Shown here: positions 4,632 to 23,840 of the stretch, one piece after another
Numbering within the stretch: position 1 is the stretch's first letter
Layout of the letters: each line of letters begins with the position of its first letter
Source of the DNA: Escherichia phage EK99P-1
Sequence record: NC_024783.1
Reading direction: 5' to 3' (one strand)
Length of the DNA stretch: 44,332 bases
The notes under the pieces: model-generated
Databases searched by the model: none
Seen by the model: the letters and a program-made list of their open reading frames with translations, nothing else
What the model was told of the DNA's origin: nothing
Position numbers and translations under genes: made by a program

Positions 4632-4953
4632 GTATGCAGCTATTGGACTGGTTATAGGTCTGGCGGTAGGATTCTGGCTAGGTGACTCCTATCGCGCTGG
4701 CGTAGTGGCGGAGGCGGCGCAAGAAGCGCAAGCCAAAGCCCAACGGCAGCAAACTAAAGTTGTTGAGCGATCCGTGCAGGCCGAACAAGCCCGCGACGTA
4801 GAATACCGGACTATCACGAAAGAGGTTGTGAAATATGTTACGCGTCCTAACCGTCCTGATTGCAGTTTTGATGCTGAGCGCGTGCGGATCAAGCAGCGTG
4901 CCGTTGATGCCGCTAACGGAGTCGGCACTGCGACCGCCGTGCAAGTTCGATAA
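4624..4953 (+). CDS. Rz-like inner-membrane spanin (i-spanin)
   Basis: GTG start with GGGGG RBS. N-terminal TM helix (IKYAAIGLVIGLAVGFWLG), then a Q/A/E-rich helical periplasmic region. Partner lipoprotein ORF embedded in the +1 frame. Confidence 0.7.
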   Translation: MIKYAAIGLVIGLAVGFWLGDSYRAGVVAEAAQEAQAKAQRQQTKVVERSVQAEQARDVEYRTITKEVVKYVTRPNRPDCSFDAERVRIKQRAVDAANGVGTATAVQVR

Positions 4954-5065
4954 CCCGTCCGCGGACCCCGACGAAGATTTGATGATTGACGTGAAAAATA
5001 TGGAATGCGGGGCGAAGCTGAGGGCGCAGGTCCTGGAGTTGCAGCAGATAATTCGGGGGCCGTAA
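4835..5065 (+). CDS. Rz1-like outer-membrane lipoprotein spanin (o-spanin)
   Basis: Starts inside Rz in another frame and extends past the Rz stop. Signal peptide plus lipobox MLRVLTVLIAVLMLSAC, short Pro-containing mature part, RBS AGAGG. Confidence 0.7.
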   Translation: MLRVLTVLIAVLMLSACGSSSVPLMPLTESALRPPCKFDNPSADPDEDLMIDVKNMECGAKLRAQVLELQQIIRGP

Positions 5066-5080
5066 TGGCCCCCTTTTATT
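5055..5080 (+). terminator. rho-independent terminator after Rz1
   Basis: GGGGGCC-gtaat-GGCCCCC hairpin followed by TTTTATT, between convergent genes. Confidence 0.6.
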
Positions 5081-5843
5081 AGCGCGGAATACCGCAGATT
5101 TCGTTTAACGTCTTCACGTCCAGTGCCACCGCCGTGGACTTCGGCTTGTCCGGGTATGGAATAAACTGTTCCACTTCAGGCCACGCCTTGATCAGCTTCT
5201 TATCGGTATTGTGCATATCCAGCACGCCGGTCACAGTCAGCTTGAATGCGTCATACTTCGCACGCAACTCGCGGCGGGCCTTGTCGTTACGGTCCAGGCG
5301 CTTGCAGAAATCATGGTCCGCCGGGTAGTCTATACGACCGCATGACTTATATATCGGCAGCGCTTTCCCATCCTCGTCCACTTCGCACACAGAAGCCAGC
5401 ATTACTTCTTCGTACCCTGGTACAATATCGCCGAGATCTGGAGATAGCGTATTCATGTATTTATATTCCCAGTATCCGCGATGTACTCGGTATTGTCGTC
5501 CGTCACCGCTCAATGACAGTGTGCGCACATTTCCGCCCGCGTTGATTTCGAAAGTGGCGTCGTAAACGCTGCCGATGCCTTTTGGGCGGTCAGCATTATA
5601 TCTATACGTCGCCTTGTTGGTGTATACGCTTACTCCGTACATCTGCGACGGGTCATCGCCGATTGCTTTAATGCGCGCGAGTAGCTCGGCGAAAGTGCGA
5701 ATGCCTTCCGGCATACAGTCCAGCGTAATGGCGTACGCCAGGTCGCGCGAGTCCATCATGATGGATTTGGCTTCGGTCGCGATTTCATGGTCGCGCAGGA
5801 TGTTAGCCAGAATCTGGTTTTTAATGTCTTTCGTCAGTCTCAT
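5079..5843 (-). CDS. hypothetical protein (minus-strand moron in head module)
   Basis: 254 aa from the ATG at 5843 (RBS AAAGAGGA). Opposite strand to all flanking structural genes. No family recognised by eye. Confidence 0.6.
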   Translation of the reverse strand: MRLTKDIKNQILANILRDHEIATEAKSIMMDSRDLAYAITLDCMPEGIRTFAELLARIKAIGDDPSQMYGVSVYTNKATYRYNADRPKGIGSVYDATFEINAGGNVRTLSLSGDGRQYRVHRGYWEYKYMNTLSPDLGDIVPGYEEVMLASVCEVDEDGKALPIYKSCGRIDYPADHDFCKRLDRNDKARRELRAKYDAFKLTVTGVLDMHNTDKKLIKAWPEVEQFIPYPDKPKSTAVALDVKTLNEICGIPR

Positions 5844-5857
5844 TTGTGTGTCCTCTT

Positions 5858-6019
5858 TTAGTGGTTGTATAATTCGCCGCGTGCGTCGGCATCTTCCATT
5901 TGGTGTAGTGCGTGTTTCTGGTCCTGGCAAGGAATCCAGCGTTCCTCTAATTTATGCCAGAAGTAAAACACCCCGTTATCCAGCTTAATCTCGGCAATAC
6001 CGTTATTGAAAGTTAGCAT
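5858..6019 (-). CDS. hypothetical small protein (first gene of moron)
   Basis: 53 aa from the internal ATG at 6019 with RBS GAGGG, immediately downstream of a promoter-like element. Confidence 0.45.
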   Translation of the reverse strand: MLTFNNGIAEIKLDNGVFYFWHKLEERWIPCQDQKHALHQMEDADARGELYNH

Positions 6020-6036
6020 TTTGTTACCCTCATTTG

Positions 6037-6078
6037 TTGGTATGCAACCAATATACTGCAACCAATCCACCAATGCAA
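6037..6078 (-). promoter_or_regulatory. sigma70-like promoter for the moron, with downstream palindrome
   Basis: Minus strand: -35 TTGCAT (6073-6078), 17-nt spacer, -10 TATATT (6050-6055), then TTGGT-tgcat-ACCAA (6037-6051). Contains two ATTGGTTGCA boxes. Confidence 0.45.
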
Positions 6079-6168
6079 GCAAATTTTGCGATTATTTTTA
6101 TCGCTGATAATATTAGAAGCGTGAAGTCGAGCGGGTGGCCTGCTCTGCCACAATCCCAGGGGGATAGC

Positions 6169-6873
6169 ATGAAACTTACTAAAGCAGAATATGACGCGTT
6201 GCCGGAAGGTATGAAGGCGCTTTTTGTTGCCGATGGCGACGGGTATAAATCAACGTTCATGACCGCAGAAGAAGTACAGGCGGAAATCAAGGGTCTGAAA
6301 GACAACAACGCTAAGCTGGTGAGCGAGAAGAAAGCAGAAGCTGAACGCCGCGCCGAAGCTGAGCGCCTTGCGAAAGAGAAAGAGGAAGCCGCCGCGCGCA
6401 AAAATGGCGACCTCGAAGCGATCGACAAGTCCTGGAAAGATAAGTTTGCGAAACACGAAGCAGACACATCGGGAAAAATCGAAGCCTACCGCAAGCAGAT
6501 CCACGATCTAACCATCGGCAGCGCTGCCAAAGACCTGGCGTCGAAGCTGTTCGGTAAGAATGCGGGCATCATGCAACGCCACGTAATGGACCGCCTGACG
6601 CTGGAAGACGGCGAAGACGGCAGCTTGAAAGTGCGAGTCTTGCAGGATGGCAAACCGTCCGCGCTGACTATGGAAGAGCTGGAAAAAGAGTTCCGTAATA
6701 ACGCCGATTTTGCATCCGTCCTGGCTGGCACGCCAGCCGGTGGCGCGCCTAGCAAACCGACGCAGGTTGTCGAAGATGTGAAGTCGAAAATCACTATGGG
6801 CCACAGCTTCGGTATCACTGACCTTACGAAACAGGCAGGTGAAATCATCGCTAAGATGGGCGACGACGAGTAA
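6169..6873 (+). CDS. scaffolding protein
   Basis: 234 aa from the ATG at 6169 (RBS GGGGGA). Charged coiled-coil stretch (EAERRAEAERLAKEKEEAAARK), directly upstream of the capsid gene. Confidence 0.65.
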   Translation: MKLTKAEYDALPEGMKALFVADGDGYKSTFMTAEEVQAEIKGLKDNNAKLVSEKKAEAERRAEAERLAKEKEEAAARKNGDLEAIDKSWKDKFAKHEADTSGKIEAYRKQIHDLTIGSAAKDLASKLFGKNAGIMQRHVMDRLTLEDGEDGSLKVRVLQDGKPSALTMEELEKEFRNNADFASVLAGTPAGGAPSKPTQVVEDVKSKITMGHSFGITDLTKQAGEIIAKMGDDE

Positions 6874-6970
6874 GCAGATTGCCCGCGAAAGCGGGCAATT
6901 TTGCGAGCGCGTAAATCTAAGGTAACATTAACGTCACTGGGCGAATGCTCACAACTCAAAGGATTTCGAT

Positions 6971-8071
6971 ATGTCTTTAACAGTGTTCCAGCGTAAACTC
7001 GTTACCGCGGTTACGCAAATGATCCCCGACAACCTGAACGTTTTCAACGCTGCCGCCAATGGCGCTGTTGTTCTCGGTACTGGTGAAGTGCTGAAGGACG
7101 TTGTAGAAAAAATGTCCGTAGGCTTGATCGCCAACCTCGTTACCGACCGTAACGCCTATGCCCCTGTCGGTACTCCGGCGACCGCAAAAGTGCTGGCGCG
7201 TATGCTGACCAACTCCGTCAACCTGTCCGCGAAAGTGGGTCCGGTAGCAATCACTAAGGCTATGATGGCTAAAATCGAAACCAACGTTAACAGCGTTGCG
7301 GCTGAGATTGCGGCACAGGCTACTCAAGCGATTATGCTGCATTACCTGAAGGCTGGCATCGGCGCAAGTAAAGCGGCGATCGAAAGCAACGCAGCGGCAA
7401 AATACACCCAACCGGCGCGCGTTGACGGCGTTGGCGGTCGTACCTTCCCGACCCTGGCAGACTTCCCGCTGGCGGCTTCTAAGTTCGGCGATCAGGCGTC
7501 TTTGATTAAGTCCTGGTTTATGGACGGCGTTACCTGGGCAAACTTCATTGCGTACCAGGCACTCCCTTCCGCGGAACAGGTATTCGCAATTGGCGATCTT
7601 CAGGTAATGGGTGATGGCCTGGGCCGTCGTTTCATTATCTCCGATGCCGCTGCTGATGCTATGGGCACGGGTAACATGCTAGGTCTGGTCCCTGGCGCGG
7701 TTGCCGTTACCACCAACGGCCTCGATATGCTGGCGCAGGAGAAAGGCGGTAACGAGAACATCGAACGCTGGTGGCAGGGCGAGTTCGACTTCAACGTGGC
7801 TGTTAAAGGCTACCGTCTGAAGGCGTCCGCTCGTACACCGATCGAAGGCGTACGCTCGTTCAAGCTGTCGGATATCACCACTTCCGCTAACTGGGAACTG
7901 GACCAGGGCCAGGTAGACAACGCACCGGCAACCGTGCAGGACGTTGGCGATGTTGGTGATGGCGATACTAAAGGCCGTCGTAAGACCCAGGCAGCACAGG
8001 CAGTGCCGACCCGTCACATCAAGGAAACCGCTGGCGTACTGGTTACGCTGACGGCGACTACCGCGTCTTAA
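6971..8071 (+). CDS. major capsid protein
   Basis: 366 aa, Ala/Gly/Val-rich, RBS AAAGGA, follows scaffold and is followed by a strong terminator. Confidence 0.75.
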   Translation: MSLTVFQRKLVTAVTQMIPDNLNVFNAAANGAVVLGTGEVLKDVVEKMSVGLIANLVTDRNAYAPVGTPATAKVLARMLTNSVNLSAKVGPVAITKAMMAKIETNVNSVAAEIAAQATQAIMLHYLKAGIGASKAAIESNAAAKYTQPARVDGVGGRTFPTLADFPLAASKFGDQASLIKSWFMDGVTWANFIAYQALPSAEQVFAIGDLQVMGDGLGRRFIISDAAADAMGTGNMLGLVPGAVAVTTNGLDMLAQEKGGNENIERWWQGEFDFNVAVKGYRLKASARTPIEGVRSFKLSDITTSANWELDQGQVDNAPATVQDVGDVGDGDTKGRRKTQAAQAVPTRHIKETAGVLVTLTATTAS

Positions 8072-16831: not shown

Positions 16832-17439
16832 CCACGTTTAAATTGTACGGCGTCTTAGGGCGTCGTTTTGGTAAAGTGCATAAGCTGGACTGCTTCACAC
16901 CAGGCGAAGGACTCACCGGCTTGTGTGTGAAGCTGCCTGGGTTACAAGACTTTTTAATGTCCGCCCACCTGGACAACATGATGTTCAAGGTGCGCAAAGG
17001 CGACCACACAATGACCGGCTATGATGAGCTAGGCGAGTTCCACGGCAACCGCGTCGTTACCATCGCGCCGGTTATGACTGGCGCAAAAAGAGGATTGGGG
17101 CAATTGCTGGCGGGTGTCGCGATCGTAGTGGCGTCGTTCTATACGGGCGGACTTGCTACTGCCGCTTTCGGGGCTTCGGCTGCAACCGCTGCCGCTATCG
17201 GTACGGCTACATTTTCGTTTGGCATGTCGCTTGCGCTGGGCGGTGCTATGCAATTGCTGTCGCCGCAGCCGAAAGGATTGCAGACCCGGCAGGACGTGGA
17301 TAACAAAGCGTCGTATGCGTTCGGCGGCCCTGTAAACACGACCGCGCAAGGTACGGCGCTTGGTGTATTATGGGGCGAGCGTGAGATCGGCGGCGCTATT
17401 ATTTCAGCCGGAATCGTAACCGAGGATTTGAACGAATGA
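16822..17439 (+). CDS. tail assembly protein I-like
   Basis: 205 aa, Gly/Ala-rich hydrophobic C-terminal half, position between K and J. Confidence 0.65.
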   Translation: MAMTTFKLYGVLGRRFGKVHKLDCFTPGEGLTGLCVKLPGLQDFLMSAHLDNMMFKVRKGDHTMTGYDELGEFHGNRVVTIAPVMTGAKRGLGQLLAGVAIVVASFYTGGLATAAFGASAATAAAIGTATFSFGMSLALGGAMQLLSPQPKGLQTRQDVDNKASYAFGGPVNTTAQGTALGVLWGEREIGGAIISAGIVTEDLNE

Positions 17440-20400
17440 CGATTGTCTATGACGTCACAGGCCATAAAGGCGGCGGTGGCAAACAGCACACCCCACAGGA
17501 GACACCCGATAGCCTGCATTCGCTGGCTAAAATCCGCATCTTGCTTGCGCTGGGAGAAGGTGAGTTCGAAGGTATTCCAGACCCTAACGAATTACGGCGG
17601 CGCGTATATCTGGACGGAACACCGATCCAGAATGCAGACCTGTCTGAAAACTTCCCAGGCGCGCGTGTGGAGTTCCGCCCCGGAACACAGCACCAGGATG
17701 TGATCCACGGATTTTCAGCGGTGGAAAGTGAGCAATCTGTCGGCGTAAAACTGGAAAACGGCACGCCGTGGGTGCGCCAGATTAACGACACCAGTTTGGA
17801 CGCCGTGCGCATTCGCATCGGCATTCCGGCCCTGTACACAAACGAAGATAATGGCGACCTGGTGGGCGGGCGCATCGACTATAAGATCGTTGTGTATACG
17901 GATAACGCGGACCCGCGTGAGTTCAGATTCGCCGCCGTTGGTAAAACAATGTCGCTATATGAGCGTGACCACCGCATCGAGCTACCGTCGAACGTGAATA
18001 CCGGTTGGCGCGTGGAAGTTCACCGCACAACGGCAGATTCCACATCGGCGAAAGTGGTGAACGATATTCAGGTACAATCAATTACTGAGATTATCGACGC
18101 CCGCCTGCGTTACCCGCTAACCGCGCTGTTGTTTGTGGAGTTCGACGCCAAAGCGTTCCAGAACATCCCGCGCGTGTCCATCAAGTGCAAAGGCCGCAAA
18201 GTTCTAATACCGAACAACTACGATCCGATTAATCATACATATTCCGGGGACTGGGACGGCACGTTTAAACGCGCATGGACGGATAACCCTGCGTGGCACT
18301 GGTACGATATTTGTATTACTGAGCGCTTCGGCCTCGGTCGGCGTATCAAACCGCAAATGTTAAACCGGTACGCGCTCTACCAGATTGCGCAGCGCTGCGA
18401 TCAGTTGGTCAGCGACGGCAACGGCGGTCGAGAAATCCGCTTTAAGAACGATATGTACATCCAGTCGCAGACAGACGCCTGGACCGTGCTTAAGGATTTA
18501 GCAGCTATCTTTGCCGGTATGACTTGGTGGGGAAACCAGATGTTGAATATCGTAAGTGACCAGCCGGTCGCAGCGGTATCGCACACTATCACCAACGCCT
18601 CGGTTATTGATGGCAGATTCGACTACGCGTCAGGGAGCCAGAAAACTCGCTATTCCACTTTCGCGGTAGCATACGGCAACCCGAAAAACCACTACGACGA
18701 TGCCATCGCAACGGGACAACGTGTCGAACTGGTACGCCGCCATAAGATTAACCGTCTGGATATAACGGCGATCGGCTGTACGCGTGAATCAGAAGCGCAA
18801 CGCCGGGGGCACTGGGCGCTAATCTCCAACCAGCTTGACCAGCAAGTTAGCTTTAAGGTTGGCATGGAGGGACTATTCTTTATTCCGGGTAGCGTAGTCG
18901 CGATCGCCGATACAAACATTTCTGGTGGCTTCGAGACACGCGGCGGTCGCCTGTTGTCGGACCCTGGCACGCGTACCGTGCTTAACACGGACAGCGAAAT
19001 CACGTTCCGCCCAGGAGATAAATTCCTGGTACGCACCGATAGCGGTAATGTGGAGTCTCGCGAGATTGCCAGCGTCAACGGCAACAAGGTTACGCTAAAA
19101 ACCGCACTGGATGCCGACCCGATTCCAGATCAACCGTTTTGCGTGGATGGCAACGATATCCAGTTGCAGAAATTCCGCATCACCGACCTGGAATATGACG
19201 ACTCTACCAGCACTTTCTCGGTGCGCGGGATCGAGTACAACGATAGTAAATACGATGCCGTTGATAATGGCGCTCGCCTTGATCCGGGCATCTTCACGCA
19301 AGTTCCTGACGGAGTAATGAAGGGGCCGGAGTCCGTGACCATTACGCCGTCGCAGATTTCATCGCAAGGCCAGCTAATCACCAACGTGGATATTGTATTC
19401 CCGCCGGTGAAGGATGCCGTGGTGTATGAAATCCAGTGGCGACGTACCAGCTTGCAGAATATGGCGGTCCAGTGGGGGAATGACTGGGTAAACATCCCAC
19501 GTACGGCATCTAACGGCGCGCACATCCCGAACGTGTTTTCCGGTAACTACCAGGCACGCGTCCGCGCGATCGGTATGGGCGAGATTTCATCCCCGTGGGT
19601 GTCGTCTGCCATCACACCGATCGAAGGTCGTCTCGGCGGGCTTAACGCGCCTATCATCACCAACGCGATTTCGGGACTCCACCAAATTTTGTGGAAGTGG
19701 AACCACAACAACGCCGCGACGGATATTTCGTATACCGAGCTTGAAGTACGCAAGCTGGGCGAAACGGAATGGAAGTTCTTGACCAACGTCCCATATCCGG
19801 GGTCGGACTATGCGCAAACGTCGCTGGAGTTCGGCATCTACCAGCAGTTGCGCGCCCGCGTAGCGGATAAAATCGGCAACCTGTCGGACTGGTCCGCCCC
19901 GTTTGAAGGCCAGGTGAGTGACAAAGTTGACGAGTACATGAAGGGGCTTGATGACGCGTTCTTGACTTCCGAAGATGGTAAACACTTCCAGGAAGCAATA
20001 GACACCATTCCGCAGGGCATTTATGAATCAATGCTCACGGACGCCCAGCAGCTATTCAATGCCCGCGCCGAGTATCAAGGTATTTACGCAGAAATCAAGG
20101 TGGCGTATAACGTGGCAGCGGATGCCCACAAGGCGGTCGCACAACTTGAGACGCTGATCGGCACTCGCCTTGACGATGCGGAAGCGGCGATCCACACGTT
20201 GCAGACAGCGCAAAGCACGCATGAACAAGCGTTCGCCCAGTACCAGCAAACTGTTGCCGCTAAGTTCGGTGAACAGGAAGCCGCCATCGATCAGGTACAA
20301 ACGGCAACGGCAGACGTAGCGGGCGCACTGGCGGAGTATAAGACCCAGGTCGCGGCGCAGTTCGGTCAGCAGTCCGCAGCTATCGAGCAGAAGATGACGT

Positions 20401-20882
20401 CCTCGTTTAACCATGCTGGCGGTAGCGCCACATATAGCCTTAAAGCTGGCGTGACGTATAACGGAACTTATTATGATGCCGGTATGCAGCTTTCAGTTGT
20501 GGCGGAAGGCGGCGCGGTTAAATCCCGCATCGCGTTCAAGGCGGACCAGTTCTACATCATGCACCCGTCGAATGGGTCGCTTTCGTCCGCGTTTATCGTT
20601 GACGGCGGTCAGGTGTACATCGACACGGCGCGCATCAAGAACGCGTCCATCAACTTCGCACAGATCACGGACACGCTGCAATCGAATAACTGGAATCCGG
20701 GGAGCAGCGGCTGGCGTATCGCGAAGGATGGCGGGGCGGAGTTCAACAACGTCACGGTCCGCGGCAACTTGTACGCGACTACGGGTAATTTCGGATTCTC
20801 CGGCGGGTCCGTTACGATCGACTCAACGGGCGTTAACGTGCCATTACCTGGCGGTGGTAGGGTGAAAGTAGGGACGTGGTAA
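17436..20882 (+). CDS. central tail fibre / host specificity protein J-like
   Basis: 1148 aa, largest ORF, follows M-L-K-I in lambda order. Confidence 0.85.
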   Translation: MTIVYDVTGHKGGGGKQHTPQETPDSLHSLAKIRILLALGEGEFEGIPDPNELRRRVYLDGTPIQNADLSENFPGARVEFRPGTQHQDVIHGFSAVESEQSVGVKLENGTPWVRQINDTSLDAVRIRIGIPALYTNEDNGDLVGGRIDYKIVVYTDNADPREFRFAAVGKTMSLYERDHRIELPSNVNTGWRVEVHRTTADSTSAKVVNDIQVQSITEIIDARLRYPLTALLFVEFDAKAFQNIPRVSIKCKGRKVLIPNNYDPINHTYSGDWDGTFKRAWTDNPAWHWYDICITERFGLGRRIKPQMLNRYALYQIAQRCDQLVSDGNGGREIRFKNDMYIQSQTDAWTVLKDLAAIFAGMTWWGNQMLNIVSDQPVAAVSHTITNASVIDGRFDYASGSQKTRYSTFAVAYGNPKNHYDDAIATGQRVELVRRHKINRLDITAIGCTRESEAQRRGHWALISNQLDQQVSFKVGMEGLFFIPGSVVAIADTNISGGFETRGGRLLSDPGTRTVLNTDSEITFRPGDKFLVRTDSGNVESREIASVNGNKVTLKTALDADPIPDQPFCVDGNDIQLQKFRITDLEYDDSTSTFSVRGIEYNDSKYDAVDNGARLDPGIFTQVPDGVMKGPESVTITPSQISSQGQLITNVDIVFPPVKDAVVYEIQWRRTSLQNMAVQWGNDWVNIPRTASNGAHIPNVFSGNYQARVRAIGMGEISSPWVSSAITPIEGRLGGLNAPIITNAISGLHQILWKWNHNNAATDISYTELEVRKLGETEWKFLTNVPYPGSDYAQTSLEFGIYQQLRARVADKIGNLSDWSAPFEGQVSDKVDEYMKGLDDAFLTSEDGKHFQEAIDTIPQGIYESMLTDAQQLFNARAEYQGIYAEIKVAYNVAADAHKAVAQLETLIGTRLDDAEAAIHTLQTAQSTHEQAFAQYQQTVAAKFGEQEAAIDQVQTATADVAGALAEYKTQVAAQFGQQSAAIEQKMTSSFNHAGGSATYSLKAGVTYNGTYYDAGMQLSVVAEGGAVKSRIAFKADQFYIMHPSNGSLSSAFIVDGGQVYIDTARIKNASINFAQITDTLQSNNWNPGSSGWRIAKDGGAEFNNVTVRGNLYATTGNFGFSGGSVTIDSTGVNVPLPGGGRVKVGTW

Positions 20883-20888
20883 ATGCGA

Positions 20889-20910
20889 AGGGGCCATCTG
20901 GCCCCTTTCT
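20889..20910. terminator. hairpin terminator between convergent J and RBP genes
   Basis: AGGGGCC-atct-GGCCCCT followed by TTCT. Weak U tract on both strands. Confidence 0.45.
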
Positions 20911-21874
20911 AATACATGTTAGGGATGACTAGTAACGGTGTGGGTACGGTTACATTACGATTAGGCATCTGGAATTGCTGCCGTGAGTAGTTACCGATCA
21001 CGCGATTTCGTGCCGCGCTAACCACGTTGCCAGCCATGCGTATCCCGCTCATTCGCACGTGGTTATATCCGCTGTTGTTCTCAATGAGCGCGCCGGTATA
21101 TGAGAGCTGTACGAGGCTGTTGCCAATATTCTGACCACCAGTGCTGATATTAATTACGGAATTGAGGACAAACGGCTTATTCACAGTGGAGAACGTGACC
21201 TGGCCCTGGTTGTTAGTCATAGTAATGCCGGTCCCCGGTGATGGCGGCGTATTGTTGAATATCACCAGGTCCATATCCACCGAAGCCGCCACATCGTCAA
21301 TACCGCCATAGGACGCATTGCGGACAATAATACTGCCGCCGTCGAAGCCTACTGATACGTTGCCATCGTCCCATCGGGCGAACGGGACACCGCTAACGGG
21401 CAATGCCATACTACCGTTGACGCGCACGCGCTGTGCGTATCGGCAGGTCATTAGCTTAGACACGTTGGATATGGCGGTGAAGTCCGTCGAGTTCTCCACC
21501 AGTAAGCCCGCGTTGCGTGAACCAACCGGCAGCACTTCCATTATGACGCCAGCCCATTGTGGTAAGCCAGAGTACGCGCCATACGCATCCTCCCCGCGCA
21601 GGGTGATACCACTATTCCCGTTGCGGGTAACAGACGTAACGTAAAACGGGTCGGGAATTACCAGGGTCTGGTCGAATACCTCAATCACTTCTACCGGGCG
21701 AGTGAGCGCGACGACGACCTGCGACCCCTCCGTAAGCGGGGTGTTAATGGTTAGCGTCTTGTTGGACTGTGCCCGCTGGTTAAAGCTGGTGCAGTATGAC
21801 GGCGCGCGGAGTCCAGCGGTTATCTCCATTACAGGCCTGCCGTCGTTATAGTCGATAAGTATTCCAGCGCCCAT
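20909..21874 (-). CDS. putative receptor-binding protein, encoded antisense to tail genes
   Basis: 321 aa from the ATG at 21874 (RBS GGGAG). Gly/Asn/Ser/Thr-rich beta-type composition, immediately after J, coupled to an upstream lipoprotein gene. Confidence 0.5.
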   Translation of the reverse strand: MGAGILIDYNDGRPVMEITAGLRAPSYCTSFNQRAQSNKTLTINTPLTEGSQVVVALTRPVEVIEVFDQTLVIPDPFYVTSVTRNGNSGITLRGEDAYGAYSGLPQWAGVIMEVLPVGSRNAGLLVENSTDFTAISNVSKLMTCRYAQRVRVNGSMALPVSGVPFARWDDGNVSVGFDGGSIIVRNASYGGIDDVAASVDMDLVIFNNTPPSPGTGITMTNNQGQVTFSTVNKPFVLNSVINISTGGQNIGNSLVQLSYTGALIENNSGYNHVRMSGIRMAGNVVSAARNRVIGNYSRQQFQMPNRNVTVPTPLLVIPNMY

Positions 21875-21876
21875 TA

Positions 21877-22098
21877 TTACCACTCCCGTGATTTAACTGA
21901 TACTGTGCCTGAGAAGTTGCCGTCGCTATCGGATGACAGCCCGGTGAATCGCATGTCCACATCTCCTGCCGGGACTTTTTGCCCGTCAACGTAGCGCAAC
22001 ATGCAGCTACCGTAAGCAACCGTAACGCAATCGCCGTTGTTGCGTTCTACGGCGCAACCGGACAACAGAACCGCACAAATCATAATTAAAGTTTTCAT
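21877..22098 (-). CDS. small lipoprotein, putative superinfection exclusion protein (Cor/Llp-like)
   Basis: 73 aa. Signal peptide and lipobox MKTLIMICAVLLSGC, RBS GGAGATGA. Stop lies 3 nt before the RBP start. Confidence 0.55.
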   Translation of the reverse strand: MKTLIMICAVLLSGCAVERNNGDCVTVAYGSCMLRYVDGQKVPAGDVDMRFTGLSSDSDGNFSGTVSVKSREW

Positions 22099-22128
22099 GG
22101 TATCATCTCCTATATTTGGTTGAGTTTT

Positions 22129-22157
22129 AGTATTACACCGCTCAGCCAGGATTGCAA
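22129..22157 (-). promoter_or_regulatory. putative promoter for the lipoprotein-RBP operon
   Basis: Minus strand: ATTGGTTGCAA box with TTGCAA as -35, 17-nt spacer, weak -10 AATACT. Confidence 0.35.
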
Positions 22158-22178
22158 CCAATTTATGAGGATTCAGCT

Positions 22179-23840
22179 ATGGCAGCGGGTACACTATCCG
22201 TAACGAATAACAGCAAGGCGGTTGCCGGGGTAGGCACGACGTTCACCGCGTTTAAAGCTGGCGACTTCTTAACGCTGGTGGTGGGGCAAGTCCCTTACAC
22301 TGTCGCGATTGCATCCGTAGAAAGCGATACCGCGCTTACGCTGGTGCTTCCGTTCGACGGTCCCACGGCAACCGGCCTTGCCTGGGATGGCGTTGCGCGC
22401 GATACCATGTCACTGGCGACGATGGGCGTTACCGTACAGGCCCAGAAAGCGTTGCGATTGATGATCGCCGATGAAAACAACTGGCGTGCGATCTTCGGAG
22501 ACGAAGAAGAAGTTACGGTAACGCTGCCGAACGGGCAGGTTATGCAGGGTATGTCGTGGGGCTACCTGTCGCGATTACTGAAGGAAGTTGACCCCGTTGA
22601 AATGCGCGACCTGCAACAACAAGCCGCCGCATCGGAAGCCGCCGCACTAGCATCACGTAACGAGGCTGAAGGATTCAAGAACGAGACGGCAGGCATTCGC
22701 GACGCCACCGATCAGATTAAGACGGATACGCAGGCAATCCACGACGCCACCAACGCCATCAAGACGCAAACCAACCAGATTAAGACAGATACTGGCGCTA
22801 TTCGCGACGAGGCCAACCAGATTAAGACGGATACCGGGGTTATTCGCGACGAGGCCAATACCGCGAAGATTGACGCGCAAACCGCCAGCACTGCCGCGCA
22901 GGGATTTCGCGATCAGGCCGAAGAATGGGCGCGAAGCGTAAACGCCGATAATCTGCTAACTAAAACCGGCAACCTGGCAGGCATTGCAGACGCTGCGGCA
23001 GCGCGCACCAATTTAGGCTTAGGTACTGTCGCCACGTTAAACACTGTTCCTGTCGCTAATGGCGGTACAGGTGCGACCACGGCTGCAGCAGCGCGCACCA
23101 ATTTAGGCTTAGGTACGACTCAGGTTGTATCTTTCGGGTCAGTGGCGTTGACTAACGTTGTTACGGGCGCTTACGCTAGCGGTTTTGGGGCAACCGTAGC
23201 TGGCGGCAGTTTTGGGGAACAGTATACCAACCCCACAGCAATTGCTGTAGATAGCACCGCTGTCGAAGGTTACATTACGTTAATGAGGGTTACAATACCC
23301 GGTGTGGGTAACCCGGGTGGCATGGACTGCTTCATGTACGCTAATGGTACGTCGTTCTTCAGAATAAATACCGGTGTTGCAAATTACGTGTTTAACAGTA
23401 CTGGGGTAGCCACCGCTACACAGTGGTCGAGTACATCTGACGAGCGAATCGAAGAGGATATTGCACGGATTGATAACCCGCTCGAAAAAATGAAGCGTAT
23501 CAAAGGTGTGTCATGGCGACTGAAGACAAACGGTAGTATCGGTCACGGTTTCATCGCTCAGGATGTGGAGCAAGATTTCCCTAGCGCTGTCAATCCGTTA
23601 CAAGATATGCAATTGTCCGACGGTAGTGTCGTAAAAAACGTCAAGTCTGTTGACACGTACGGCGTGGCCGCAGCTTTGCATCATGAAGCTATTCTCGCAC
23701 TCATGGCTAAAATAGAAGCACTGGAGGCCACCATGCGAGCGTTGCCGGATACGATGAAACAGGTGGAGGAGTTGAAAGCCGCACAAGCGGGCTTTCGTAA
23801 TATTCCTTTCCGTCCACTTCCACTAAGGGCCAATCGTTAA
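22179..23840 (+). CDS. side tail fibre with C-terminal intramolecular chaperone (peptidase S74-like) domain
   Basis: 553 aa from the ATG at 22179 (RBS GAGGA). Repeated IKTDT and AARTNLGLGT motifs. C-terminal DERIEEDI...KRIKGV...HGFIAQDVEQ...AILALMAKIEALE resembles the endosialidase-type chaperone. Confidence 0.7.
   Translation: MAAGTLSVTNNSKAVAGVGTTFTAFKAGDFLTLVVGQVPYTVAIASVESDTALTLVLPFDGPTATGLAWDGVARDTMSLATMGVTVQAQKALRLMIADENNWRAIFGDEEEVTVTLPNGQVMQGMSWGYLSRLLKEVDPVEMRDLQQQAAASEAAALASRNEAEGFKNETAGIRDATDQIKTDTQAIHDATNAIKTQTNQIKTDTGAIRDEANQIKTDTGVIRDEANTAKIDAQTASTAAQGFRDQAEEWARSVNADNLLTKTGNLAGIADAAAARTNLGLGTVATLNTVPVANGGTGATTAAAARTNLGLGTTQVVSFGSVALTNVVTGAYASGFGATVAGGSFGEQYTNPTAIAVDSTAVEGYITLMRVTIPGVGNPGGMDCFMYANGTSFFRINTGVANYVFNSTGVATATQWSSTSDERIEEDIARIDNPLEKMKRIKGVSWRLKTNGSIGHGFIAQDVEQDFPSAVNPLQDMQLSDGSVVKNVKSVDTYGVAAALHHEAILALMAKIEALEATMRALPDTMKQVEELKAAQAGFRNIPFRPLPLRANR

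Follow-up and report, generated by a model that had tools for sequence, protein, structure and literature searches.

Background

Maffei et al. 2021 (PMC8594841) matched a type of locus located directly downstream of gpJ to LptD as the terminal receptor. This LptD-type locus was noted in Drexlerviridae, Dhillonvirus, Nonagvirus and Seuratvirus (PMC8594841), and the LptD dependence of the phage ChristophMerian was established experimentally in the same work (PMC8594841). A 2026 preprint confirms that four unrelated families of receptor-binding proteins (RBPs) encoded at the J-downstream locus track the receptors FhuA, BtuB, LptD and YncD.

Structures are available for the LptD type. Dunbar et al. 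(PNAS 2025, PMC12685063) determined cryo-EM structures (9RPT, 9RPW and 9RQI) of the RBP of phage Oekolampad (Bas18) together with the LptDE lipopolysaccharide translocon. RBP_Oeko inserts deeply into the LptD barrel in its open state and contacts extracellular loops 3-5 and 11, with Gln299 of the RBP named as a contact to LptD Ser350, and neither RBP_Oeko binding nor infection occurs with the LptD point mutants D352Y and Y671N (PMC12685063). The companion gene bas18_0026 was named SE_Oeko, the superinfection-exclusion (SE) lipoprotein of Oekolampad (PMC12685063). The related lipoprotein Rtp45 was resolved on the periplasmic face of LptDE (9RPS), where it is located between LptE and LptM and sends a hairpin up the lumen; loop EL4 is shifted in this complex by as much as 20 Å, a displacement not compatible with binding of the RBP (PMC12685063). 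Between Rtp44 and the RBP of AugustePiccard, a phage that depends on LptD, the identity is 96% (PMC12685063). The RBP/SE pair as such is thus already known (Maffei 2021; Dunbar 2025), the structures having been obtained on genes nearly identical to those described here.

The corresponding region of Escherichia phage EK99P-1 is examined below. On the evidence of its sequence, this region is very probably an LptD-type terminal-receptor module that encodes an RBP together with an exclusion lipoprotein.

Organization of the locus

All coordinates refer to the window, that is, the whole stretch of 44,332 nucleotides that was analysed (NC_024783.1). At the DNA level the region shares 85-92% identity with about 150 Dhillonvirus genomes, and EK99P-1 is a Dhillonvirus. 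The gene for the J-like central tail fibre (1148 aa) occupies positions 17436-20882 on the plus strand. It is faced by two genes on the minus strand: the lipoprotein gene EK99P-1_0026 (AIK68738.1), which encodes 73 aa and extends from an ATG at 22098 to a stop at 21877, and the RBP gene EK99P-1_0025 (AIK68737.1), which encodes 321 aa in 966 nt and extends from an ATG at 21874 to a stop at 20909. Both are convergent with J, and a 26-nt gap separates the RBP stop from the J stop codon. The initial annotation had placed a 73-aa lipoprotein gene and a 321-aa gene here, antisense and convergent on J, and both ORFs are present as it described. It had also put the stop of one and the start of the other 3 nt apart; the two genes are indeed adjacent, but 3 is the difference between the coordinates and the true spacing from the TAA stop of the lipoprotein gene to the ATG of the RBP gene is 2 nt (TAA-TA-ATG).

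An AGGAG ribosome-binding site (22111-22107) is located 8 nt upstream of the lipoprotein gene, and a GGGAG site is found upstream of the RBP ATG at 21874. The mechanical ORF list offers an alternative RBP start, a GTG at 21883 that would yield 324 aa; the ATG is used in all annotated relatives. Compared with six relatives, the dN/dS of the two minus-strand genes is 0.03-0.15 (0.04-0.15 for the RBP gene), with the exception of one segment that has only 3 substitutions. Both ORFs are genuine genes under purifying selection.

On its other side the lipoprotein gene is separated by an 80-nt spacer from the divergent lateral tail fibre gene (22179..23840, plus strand). This gene most likely starts with the ATG at 22179, although a TTG at 22152 is given in the mechanical ORF list. 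The product ends in a C-terminal Peptidase_S74 intramolecular chaperone domain (E 1.6e-12) and matches PHROG 1980, 'tail fiber protein' (E 5.5e-126), and its homologue in Oekolampad is annotated as 'lateral tail fiber protein'. It is presumed to be the binder of the primary glycan receptor.

The antisense orientation of the pair had been regarded as unusual, but for the LptD module it is standard. The lipoprotein gene followed by the RBP gene, antisense and convergent on J, is the arrangement in all eight relatives examined (Oekolampad, PEC9, JL1, SO-1, BF9, WF5505, HK578 and, among the Drexlerviridae, Rtp). Envy, a Dhillonvirus of the FhuA type, has two J-adjacent genes that are co-directional with J, but its cor lipoprotein gene is again antisense and occupies the corresponding position.

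Candidate promoter and probable terminator

A candidate sigma-70 promoter for the lipoprotein-RBP operon is located at 22129..22157 on the minus strand. It consists of a -35 element TTGCAA (22157-22152), a spacing of 17 nt and the -10 hexamer (22134-22129) within TG-n-AATACT, which is an extended -10 layout; these positions were confirmed by script. Among Dhillonvirus relatives the TG and AATACT are invariant, the last base of the -35 element is A or T (TTGCAA/TTGCAT), and the 'n' and the spacer are variable. The element is retained upstream of three different receptor modules. It matches the consensus at 8 of 12 positions and was not called by the simple promoter scan, for which the threshold was 9/12. 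The earlier proposal of an operon with its own promoter at this place is thereby kept in part: the conserved extended -10 site is a plausible promoter, although it falls below the scan threshold. Taken as a whole, the 80-nt region upstream of the lipoprotein gene shows about 95% identity among Envy, HK578, Oekolampad and EK99P-1. Inspection of this spacer by eye gave no convincing plus-strand promoter for the lateral tail fibre gene.

Between the J and RBP genes, at 20888..20907 and assigned to neither strand, there is a GC-rich hairpin, AAGGGGCC-ATCT-GGCCCCTT, with a dG of -15.8 kcal/mol and a z of -3.3 (none of 200 shuffles gives an equally stable fold). Seven Dhillonviruses have an identical stem; the single variable position is in the loop, where it has no effect on pairing. 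The hairpin is probably a bidirectional terminator; its weak T-run explains why the simple terminator scan did not call it.

Module boundaries and the J C-terminus

The J protein is conserved across Dhillonviruses up to about residue 1086 regardless of the receptor module, and Pfam Phage_Tail_Tip is found on residues 982-1118. The last ~60 residues follow the module type. EK99P-1 and Oekolampad have one form in common; in HK578, where a Dhillonvirus backbone is combined with Rtp-like RBP/SE alleles, the J end is Rtp-like too, and the J end of Envy is unrelated. This module-specific C-terminal end, the last ~63 codons of J (20691..20882, plus strand), is presumed to be the docking site of the RBP, and its covariation with the RBP/SE allele supports such docking on the last ~60 J residues.

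The limits of the exchangeable module can be placed from the same comparisons. Since the upstream region and the signal peptide with its lipobox are shared across modules, one edge is located just after the lipobox, and since J is conserved until its module-specific end, the other is located ~63 codons before the end of J.

The receptor-binding protein

The 321-aa protein matches a single set of PDB chains, those of the Oekolampad RBP (9RPT_C/9RPW/9RQI), with an E of 1.9e-194 and residues 1-321 aligned on 1-321. Its identity is 92% to Oekolampad bas18_0025 over the full length, 77% to the RBP of ChristophMerian, 38% to HK578 gp23 and 35% to Rtp44. The Pfam family DUF6453 (PF20051), with a profile of 291 positions, scores 406.6 bits on residues 4-297 (gathering cut-off 25), and Rtp44 and HK578 gp23 also match this profile. 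Conservation is highest in the N-terminal 23 residues, in agreement with Black et al. 2025 (PMC13035648). Gln299 is conserved in the EK99P-1 RBP. These similarities support the view that the 321-aa protein is a separate RBP of the LptD-binding family DUF6453. The comparison with RBPs for FhuA, BtuB and LptD that had been suggested for this protein thus points to LptD, through the 92%-identical RBP solved with LptDE.

The protein is not uniformly similar to its Oekolampad counterpart. Residues 1-235 are 97% identical, while the last 86 residues (236-321) differ at 19 positions and are only 78% identical, with a dS above 1, which is saturated; this difference marks a recombinant, tip-proximal segment in the RBP. 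The C-terminal allele, referred to here as 'JL1-type', is common to JL1, PEC9, BF9, WF5505 and others. No phage with a tested receptor was found among the 21 records that carry it. The motif NYSRQQFQ around Gln299 is invariant in seven of seven close relatives, and the dN/dS of residues 236-321 is 0.13, which gives no sign of positive selection.

Distant homologues of both the RBP and the lipoprotein families are also encountered outside the siphovirus-type loci discussed so far, in podoviruses of the Gordonclarkvirinae (Kuravirus). The phiEco32 protein gp21 (= SU10 gp19) scores 84 bits with DUF6453, and its only PDB relative is 9RPT_C (E 2e-9); SU10 gp104 scores 124 bits with PF24052. The gene for SU10 gp19 is flanked by gp18, which encodes the tail needle, and gp20, which encodes an ejection protein. 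The main text and the examined supplements of the SU10 virion-structure paper contain no mention of gp19, and no published link between Kuravirus podoviruses and LptD was found in the literature searched.

The lipoprotein

The 73-aa protein starts with a lipoprotein signal peptide and lipobox (MKTLIMICAVLLSG/CAVE, lipobox LLSG/C) in which the +2 residue is Ala, not Asp. Sorting of lipoproteins to the outer membrane according to the +2 residue is the standard Lol rule, and from the Ala the protein is predicted to be sorted to the outer membrane. It scores 76.6 bits with PF24052 (Phage_lipoprotein; cut-off 27) on residues 3-73, a family in which Rtp45 scores 128 bits, and it matches the Rtp45 chain 9RPS_D in the PDB (E 1.5e-8). 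Cys24 and Cys32 align with the disulfide pair Cys30-Cys38 of Rtp45, and the VPAG(D/E)VD segment that follows is kept. The protein is 99% identical to Oekolampad bas18_0026, with one V/I change, and 36% identical to Rtp45. That the lipoprotein is nearly unchanged between EK99P-1 and Oekolampad argues for the same receptor in both phages. An assignment as an Rtp45-type superinfection-exclusion lipoprotein directed at LptD is supported by these matches. SE_Oeko could not be expressed by Dunbar et al. (PMC12685063), and for this reason the mechanism of exclusion rests on the 36%-identical Rtp45.

The initial annotation had suggested an RBP paired with a Cor/Llp-type lipoprotein that blocks the same receptor. 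The homologues at 92% and 99% identity bear out the RBP/exclusion pair, but the mature lipoprotein is not of the Cor/Llp type. Membership of the Cor/Llp family was ruled out, the similarity being confined to the signal peptide and lipobox, and a search of the PDB with the lipoprotein gave no match to Llp. The likeness to Cor and Llp is a functional analogy and not a kinship of the mature part.

Alternative explanations

Existing labels would place the 321-aa protein in a different category. RefSeq calls EK99P-1_0025 a 'membrane protein', PHROG 1265 has it under 'moron, auxiliary metabolic gene and host takeover', and Pfam has it as DUF6453. In line with the first two, it could be a non-structural membrane or 'moron' protein that forms an accessory cassette with the lipoprotein, for example a two-part exclusion system, the more so as it is transcribed, along with an exclusion gene, in the direction opposite to the structural operon and as a 2026 paper suggests an exclusion-related role for analogous genes beside cor (PMC13164509). 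The protein itself, however, has no signal peptide and no transmembrane-like or hydrophobic segment (the top 19-residue Kyte-Doolittle average is 1.22); its 92%-identical homologue is soluble, attaches to LptDE on the extracellular face and enters the lumen, and the receptor mutations that block this binding also block infection (PMC12685063). The J C-terminus, moreover, co-varies with the 321-aa protein, so that an accessory cassette is a highly improbable reading. The 'membrane protein' label was rejected, given the lack of a hydrophobic segment and the soluble homologue that binds from outside. Equally improbable is that the 73-aa protein is a FhuA blocker of the Cor/Llp family, as in T1, phi80 and T5. 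A weak PHROG match to 'Cor superinfection exclusion protein' (E 5.4e-4) and the location of the gene, at the same antisense position as cor in Envy, would favour it, but the match is limited to residues 1-30, which are signal peptide. In an alignment with Envy Cor the identity is likewise confined to the signal peptide and lipobox (MKTLIMICAVLLSGCA), the mature parts are unrelated, and that of EK99P-1 belongs to PF24052 with Rtp45, an LptDE binder.

A further possibility concerns specificity within the same kind of module. The C-terminal allele of the RBP might bind LptD differently, by way of other loops or in escape from resistance mutations, or might bind another outer-membrane protein. The divergence of residues 236-321 from the solved Oekolampad RBP speaks for this, as do the want of a receptor-tested phage among the 21 allele records and the fact that at least one receptor contact, Gln299, falls in the C-terminal part (PMC12685063). 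Against it, the SE lipoprotein, which would be expected to change alongside the receptor, is 99% identical to that of Oekolampad, and family members at 33-77% identity are still linked to LptD; the residues around Gln299 are also invariant in all seven close relatives, and the low dN/dS of the segment points the same way. A changed specificity is thus unlikely, if somewhat less remote than the two readings above. A narrower version can be held as a speculative idea with a small chance of being right: the JL1-type 86 residues might engage LptD in a distinctive manner, for instance one that is insensitive to D352Y/Y671N or tuned to enterotoxigenic/O157 LptD loop variants, with the unchanged lipoprotein still blocking. 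If true, this would show phage diversification on an essential receptor.

Proposed mechanism

For the preferred reading, an LptD-directed RBP/SE pair, the following model is proposed. The lipoprotein and RBP genes would form one short operon, lipoprotein first and antisense to the tail operon, that is transcribed from the sigma-70-like extended -10 promoter and ends at the hairpin shared with J; use of this promoter and co-transcription of the two genes are part of the model. The RBP would dock by its conserved N-terminal 'base' on the C-terminal ~60 residues of the J-like central tail fibre and would bind LptD, as shown for its homologues. The 73-aa protein would be processed by Sec/LspA, and sorting would take it to the outer membrane's inner leaflet. 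There it may bind LptDE from the periplasmic side and thrust a beta-hairpin upward through the lumen. The hairpin would displace EL4 outward, and because of this displacement LptD is proposed to accept the RBP no longer. As an outcome, the infected cell would be protected from adsorption by LptD-dependent phages, and progeny phage would be protected from adsorbing to cell debris.

Implications for annotation

The terminal receptor of EK99P-1 is predicted to be LptD. The annotation of EK99P-1_0025 should accordingly be changed to LptD-binding receptor-binding protein and that of EK99P-1_0026 to LptD-directed superinfection-exclusion lipoprotein. Because LptD is an outer-membrane protein that the bacterium cannot do without, it is an attractive target for antibiotics and for 'phage steering'. 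The significance of the LptD pair was established beforehand on near-identical genes, and the value of the present analysis for EK99P-1 is in its annotation and in the prediction of its receptor.

Comparison with known systems

The closest described system is that of Oekolampad (Bas18), which belongs to the same genus and has the same gene order, orientation, gene lengths (966 + 222 nt) and 2-nt gap. The LptD-type J C-terminus, the promoter region and the hairpin are also alike. The two phages differ in the last 86 RBP residues, which represent another allele (78% identical), and in the lateral tail fibre gene, which is 1821 nt in Oekolampad versus a mechanical ORF call of 562 aa in EK99P-1.

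Rtp, from a different phage family (Drexlerviridae), has rtp44 and rtp45 in the same two protein families, DUF6453 and PF24052, with the lipoprotein gene preceding the RBP gene and both running antisense towards rtp43, the homologue of J, with which they converge. The lipoproteins also have the cysteines of the disulfide and the VPAG(D/E)VD motif in common. Here, however, protein identity is only 35-36%, the two genes overlap by one base in place of the 2-nt gap of EK99P-1, and the upstream region cannot be confidently aligned with that of EK99P-1.

The T5 pair pb5 (oad)/Llp, which acts on FhuA, resembles the EK99P-1 pair in that the central fibre is tipped by an RBP encoded separately and a small outer-membrane lipoprotein is present. 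According to PMC9586334, as summarised in PMC12685063, T5 Llp binds the periplasmic side of FhuA and prevents RBP binding. There is no sequence relationship between the two pairs, and the T5 receptor is a TonB-dependent transporter. The modes of exclusion differ too: T5 Llp works through long-range allostery, while in the case of Rtp45 a loop of LptD is physically displaced (PMC12685063).

The Cor cassette of FhuA-dependent phages (T1, phi80, N15, Envy gp20-22) is found at the same genomic position, flanked by J and the lateral tail fibre gene. Its lipoprotein gene likewise runs antisense and is preceded by the same 80-nt region, and its product starts with an identical signal peptide and lipobox. 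It differs in the mature part of the lipoprotein, which is unrelated, and in the receptor, which is FhuA, and the J-adjacent genes (100 + 224 aa) are co-directional with J and have no Pfam match.

Edges and mosaicism of the receptor module

The exchangeable receptor module, which comprises the antisense genes for the LptD-type receptor-binding protein (RBP) and its partner lipoprotein, is bordered by positions 22054-22178 on the lipoprotein side and by positions about 20691-20882 on the side of the central tail fibre gene J. The first border covers the signal-peptide codons of the lipoprotein and the 80-nt spacer, and the second corresponds to the end of J. Between the LptD-type lipoprotein of EK99P-1, the Rtp-like lipoprotein of HK578 and Envy's FhuA-type Cor, the sequence is nearly unchanged from the upstream spacer through the start codon and signal peptide to the lipobox, and only the mature part of the lipoprotein is swapped among these three Dhillonviruses. 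J varies by module solely in its last ~63 codons.

The RBP gene is itself a mosaic. Residues 236-321 (positions 20912-21169) form a JL1-type allele segment that is 78% identical to the counterparts in Oekolampad and SO-1, two relatives with LptD-type modules, with a dS of about 1.15, against 96-97% identity for the remaining gene. Comparison with JL1, BF9 and WF5505 yields the opposite pattern along the gene, and this reversal, together with the divergence of the segment from Oekolampad and SO-1, indicates intragenic recombination.

Expression of the lateral tail fibre gene

The antisense lipoprotein-RBP pair separates the lateral tail fibre gene (22179-23840, plus strand) from the tail operon, and the lateral tail fibre gene needs a promoter of its own. 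No convincing plus-strand promoter was seen when the 80-nt spacer (22099-22178) was searched by eye. The top plus-strand consensus match in a promoter scan, CGGACA-16 nt-CATAAT (9/12; 22059-22086), falls within the signal-peptide codons of the lipoprotein. Relatives disagree on the annotated start codon of the lateral tail fibre gene: PEC9 uses the TTG at 22152, and Oekolampad, JL1 and SO-1 use the ATG at 22179.

Database labels and host names

The RBP (20909-21874, minus strand) is named 'membrane protein' in RefSeq, placed by PHROG 1265 under 'moron, auxiliary metabolic gene and host takeover', and labelled 'DUF6453, unknown function' in Pfam. These labels are misleading: the DUF6453 family includes structurally characterised LptD-binding RBPs. 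Close homologues of the RBP-lipoprotein pair are encountered in records whose names give Aeromonas, Campylobacter, Vibrio or Acinetobacter as the phage host (RBP identity 43-78%), and the 90% cluster containing the EK99P-1 lipoprotein also takes in that of Acinetobacter phage NJ01. As the module targets enterobacterial LptD, the host labels on these records look doubtful.

Homologues in Kuravirus podoviruses

Distant members of both families, DUF6453 and PF24052, are present in Kuravirus/Gordonclarkvirinae podoviruses. The DUF6453 member, phiEco32 gp21 (4659-5690) or its SU10 counterpart gp19 (6001-7032), scores 84 bits against the family profile, shares 24% identity with the EK99P-1 RBP, and has the LptD RBP 9RPT_C as its sole PDB relative; its gene is flanked by those for the tail needle and an ejection protein. 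The PF24052 lipoprotein (SU10 gp104, 4968-5249 of a separate locus) scores 124 bits and is encoded in the early small-gene region. None of the papers searched connects Kuravirus/Gordonclarkvirinae with LptD, and the main text and searched supplements of the SU10 structure paper make no reference to gp19. LptD may be the terminal receptor of these podoviruses, with exclusion acting through LptD.
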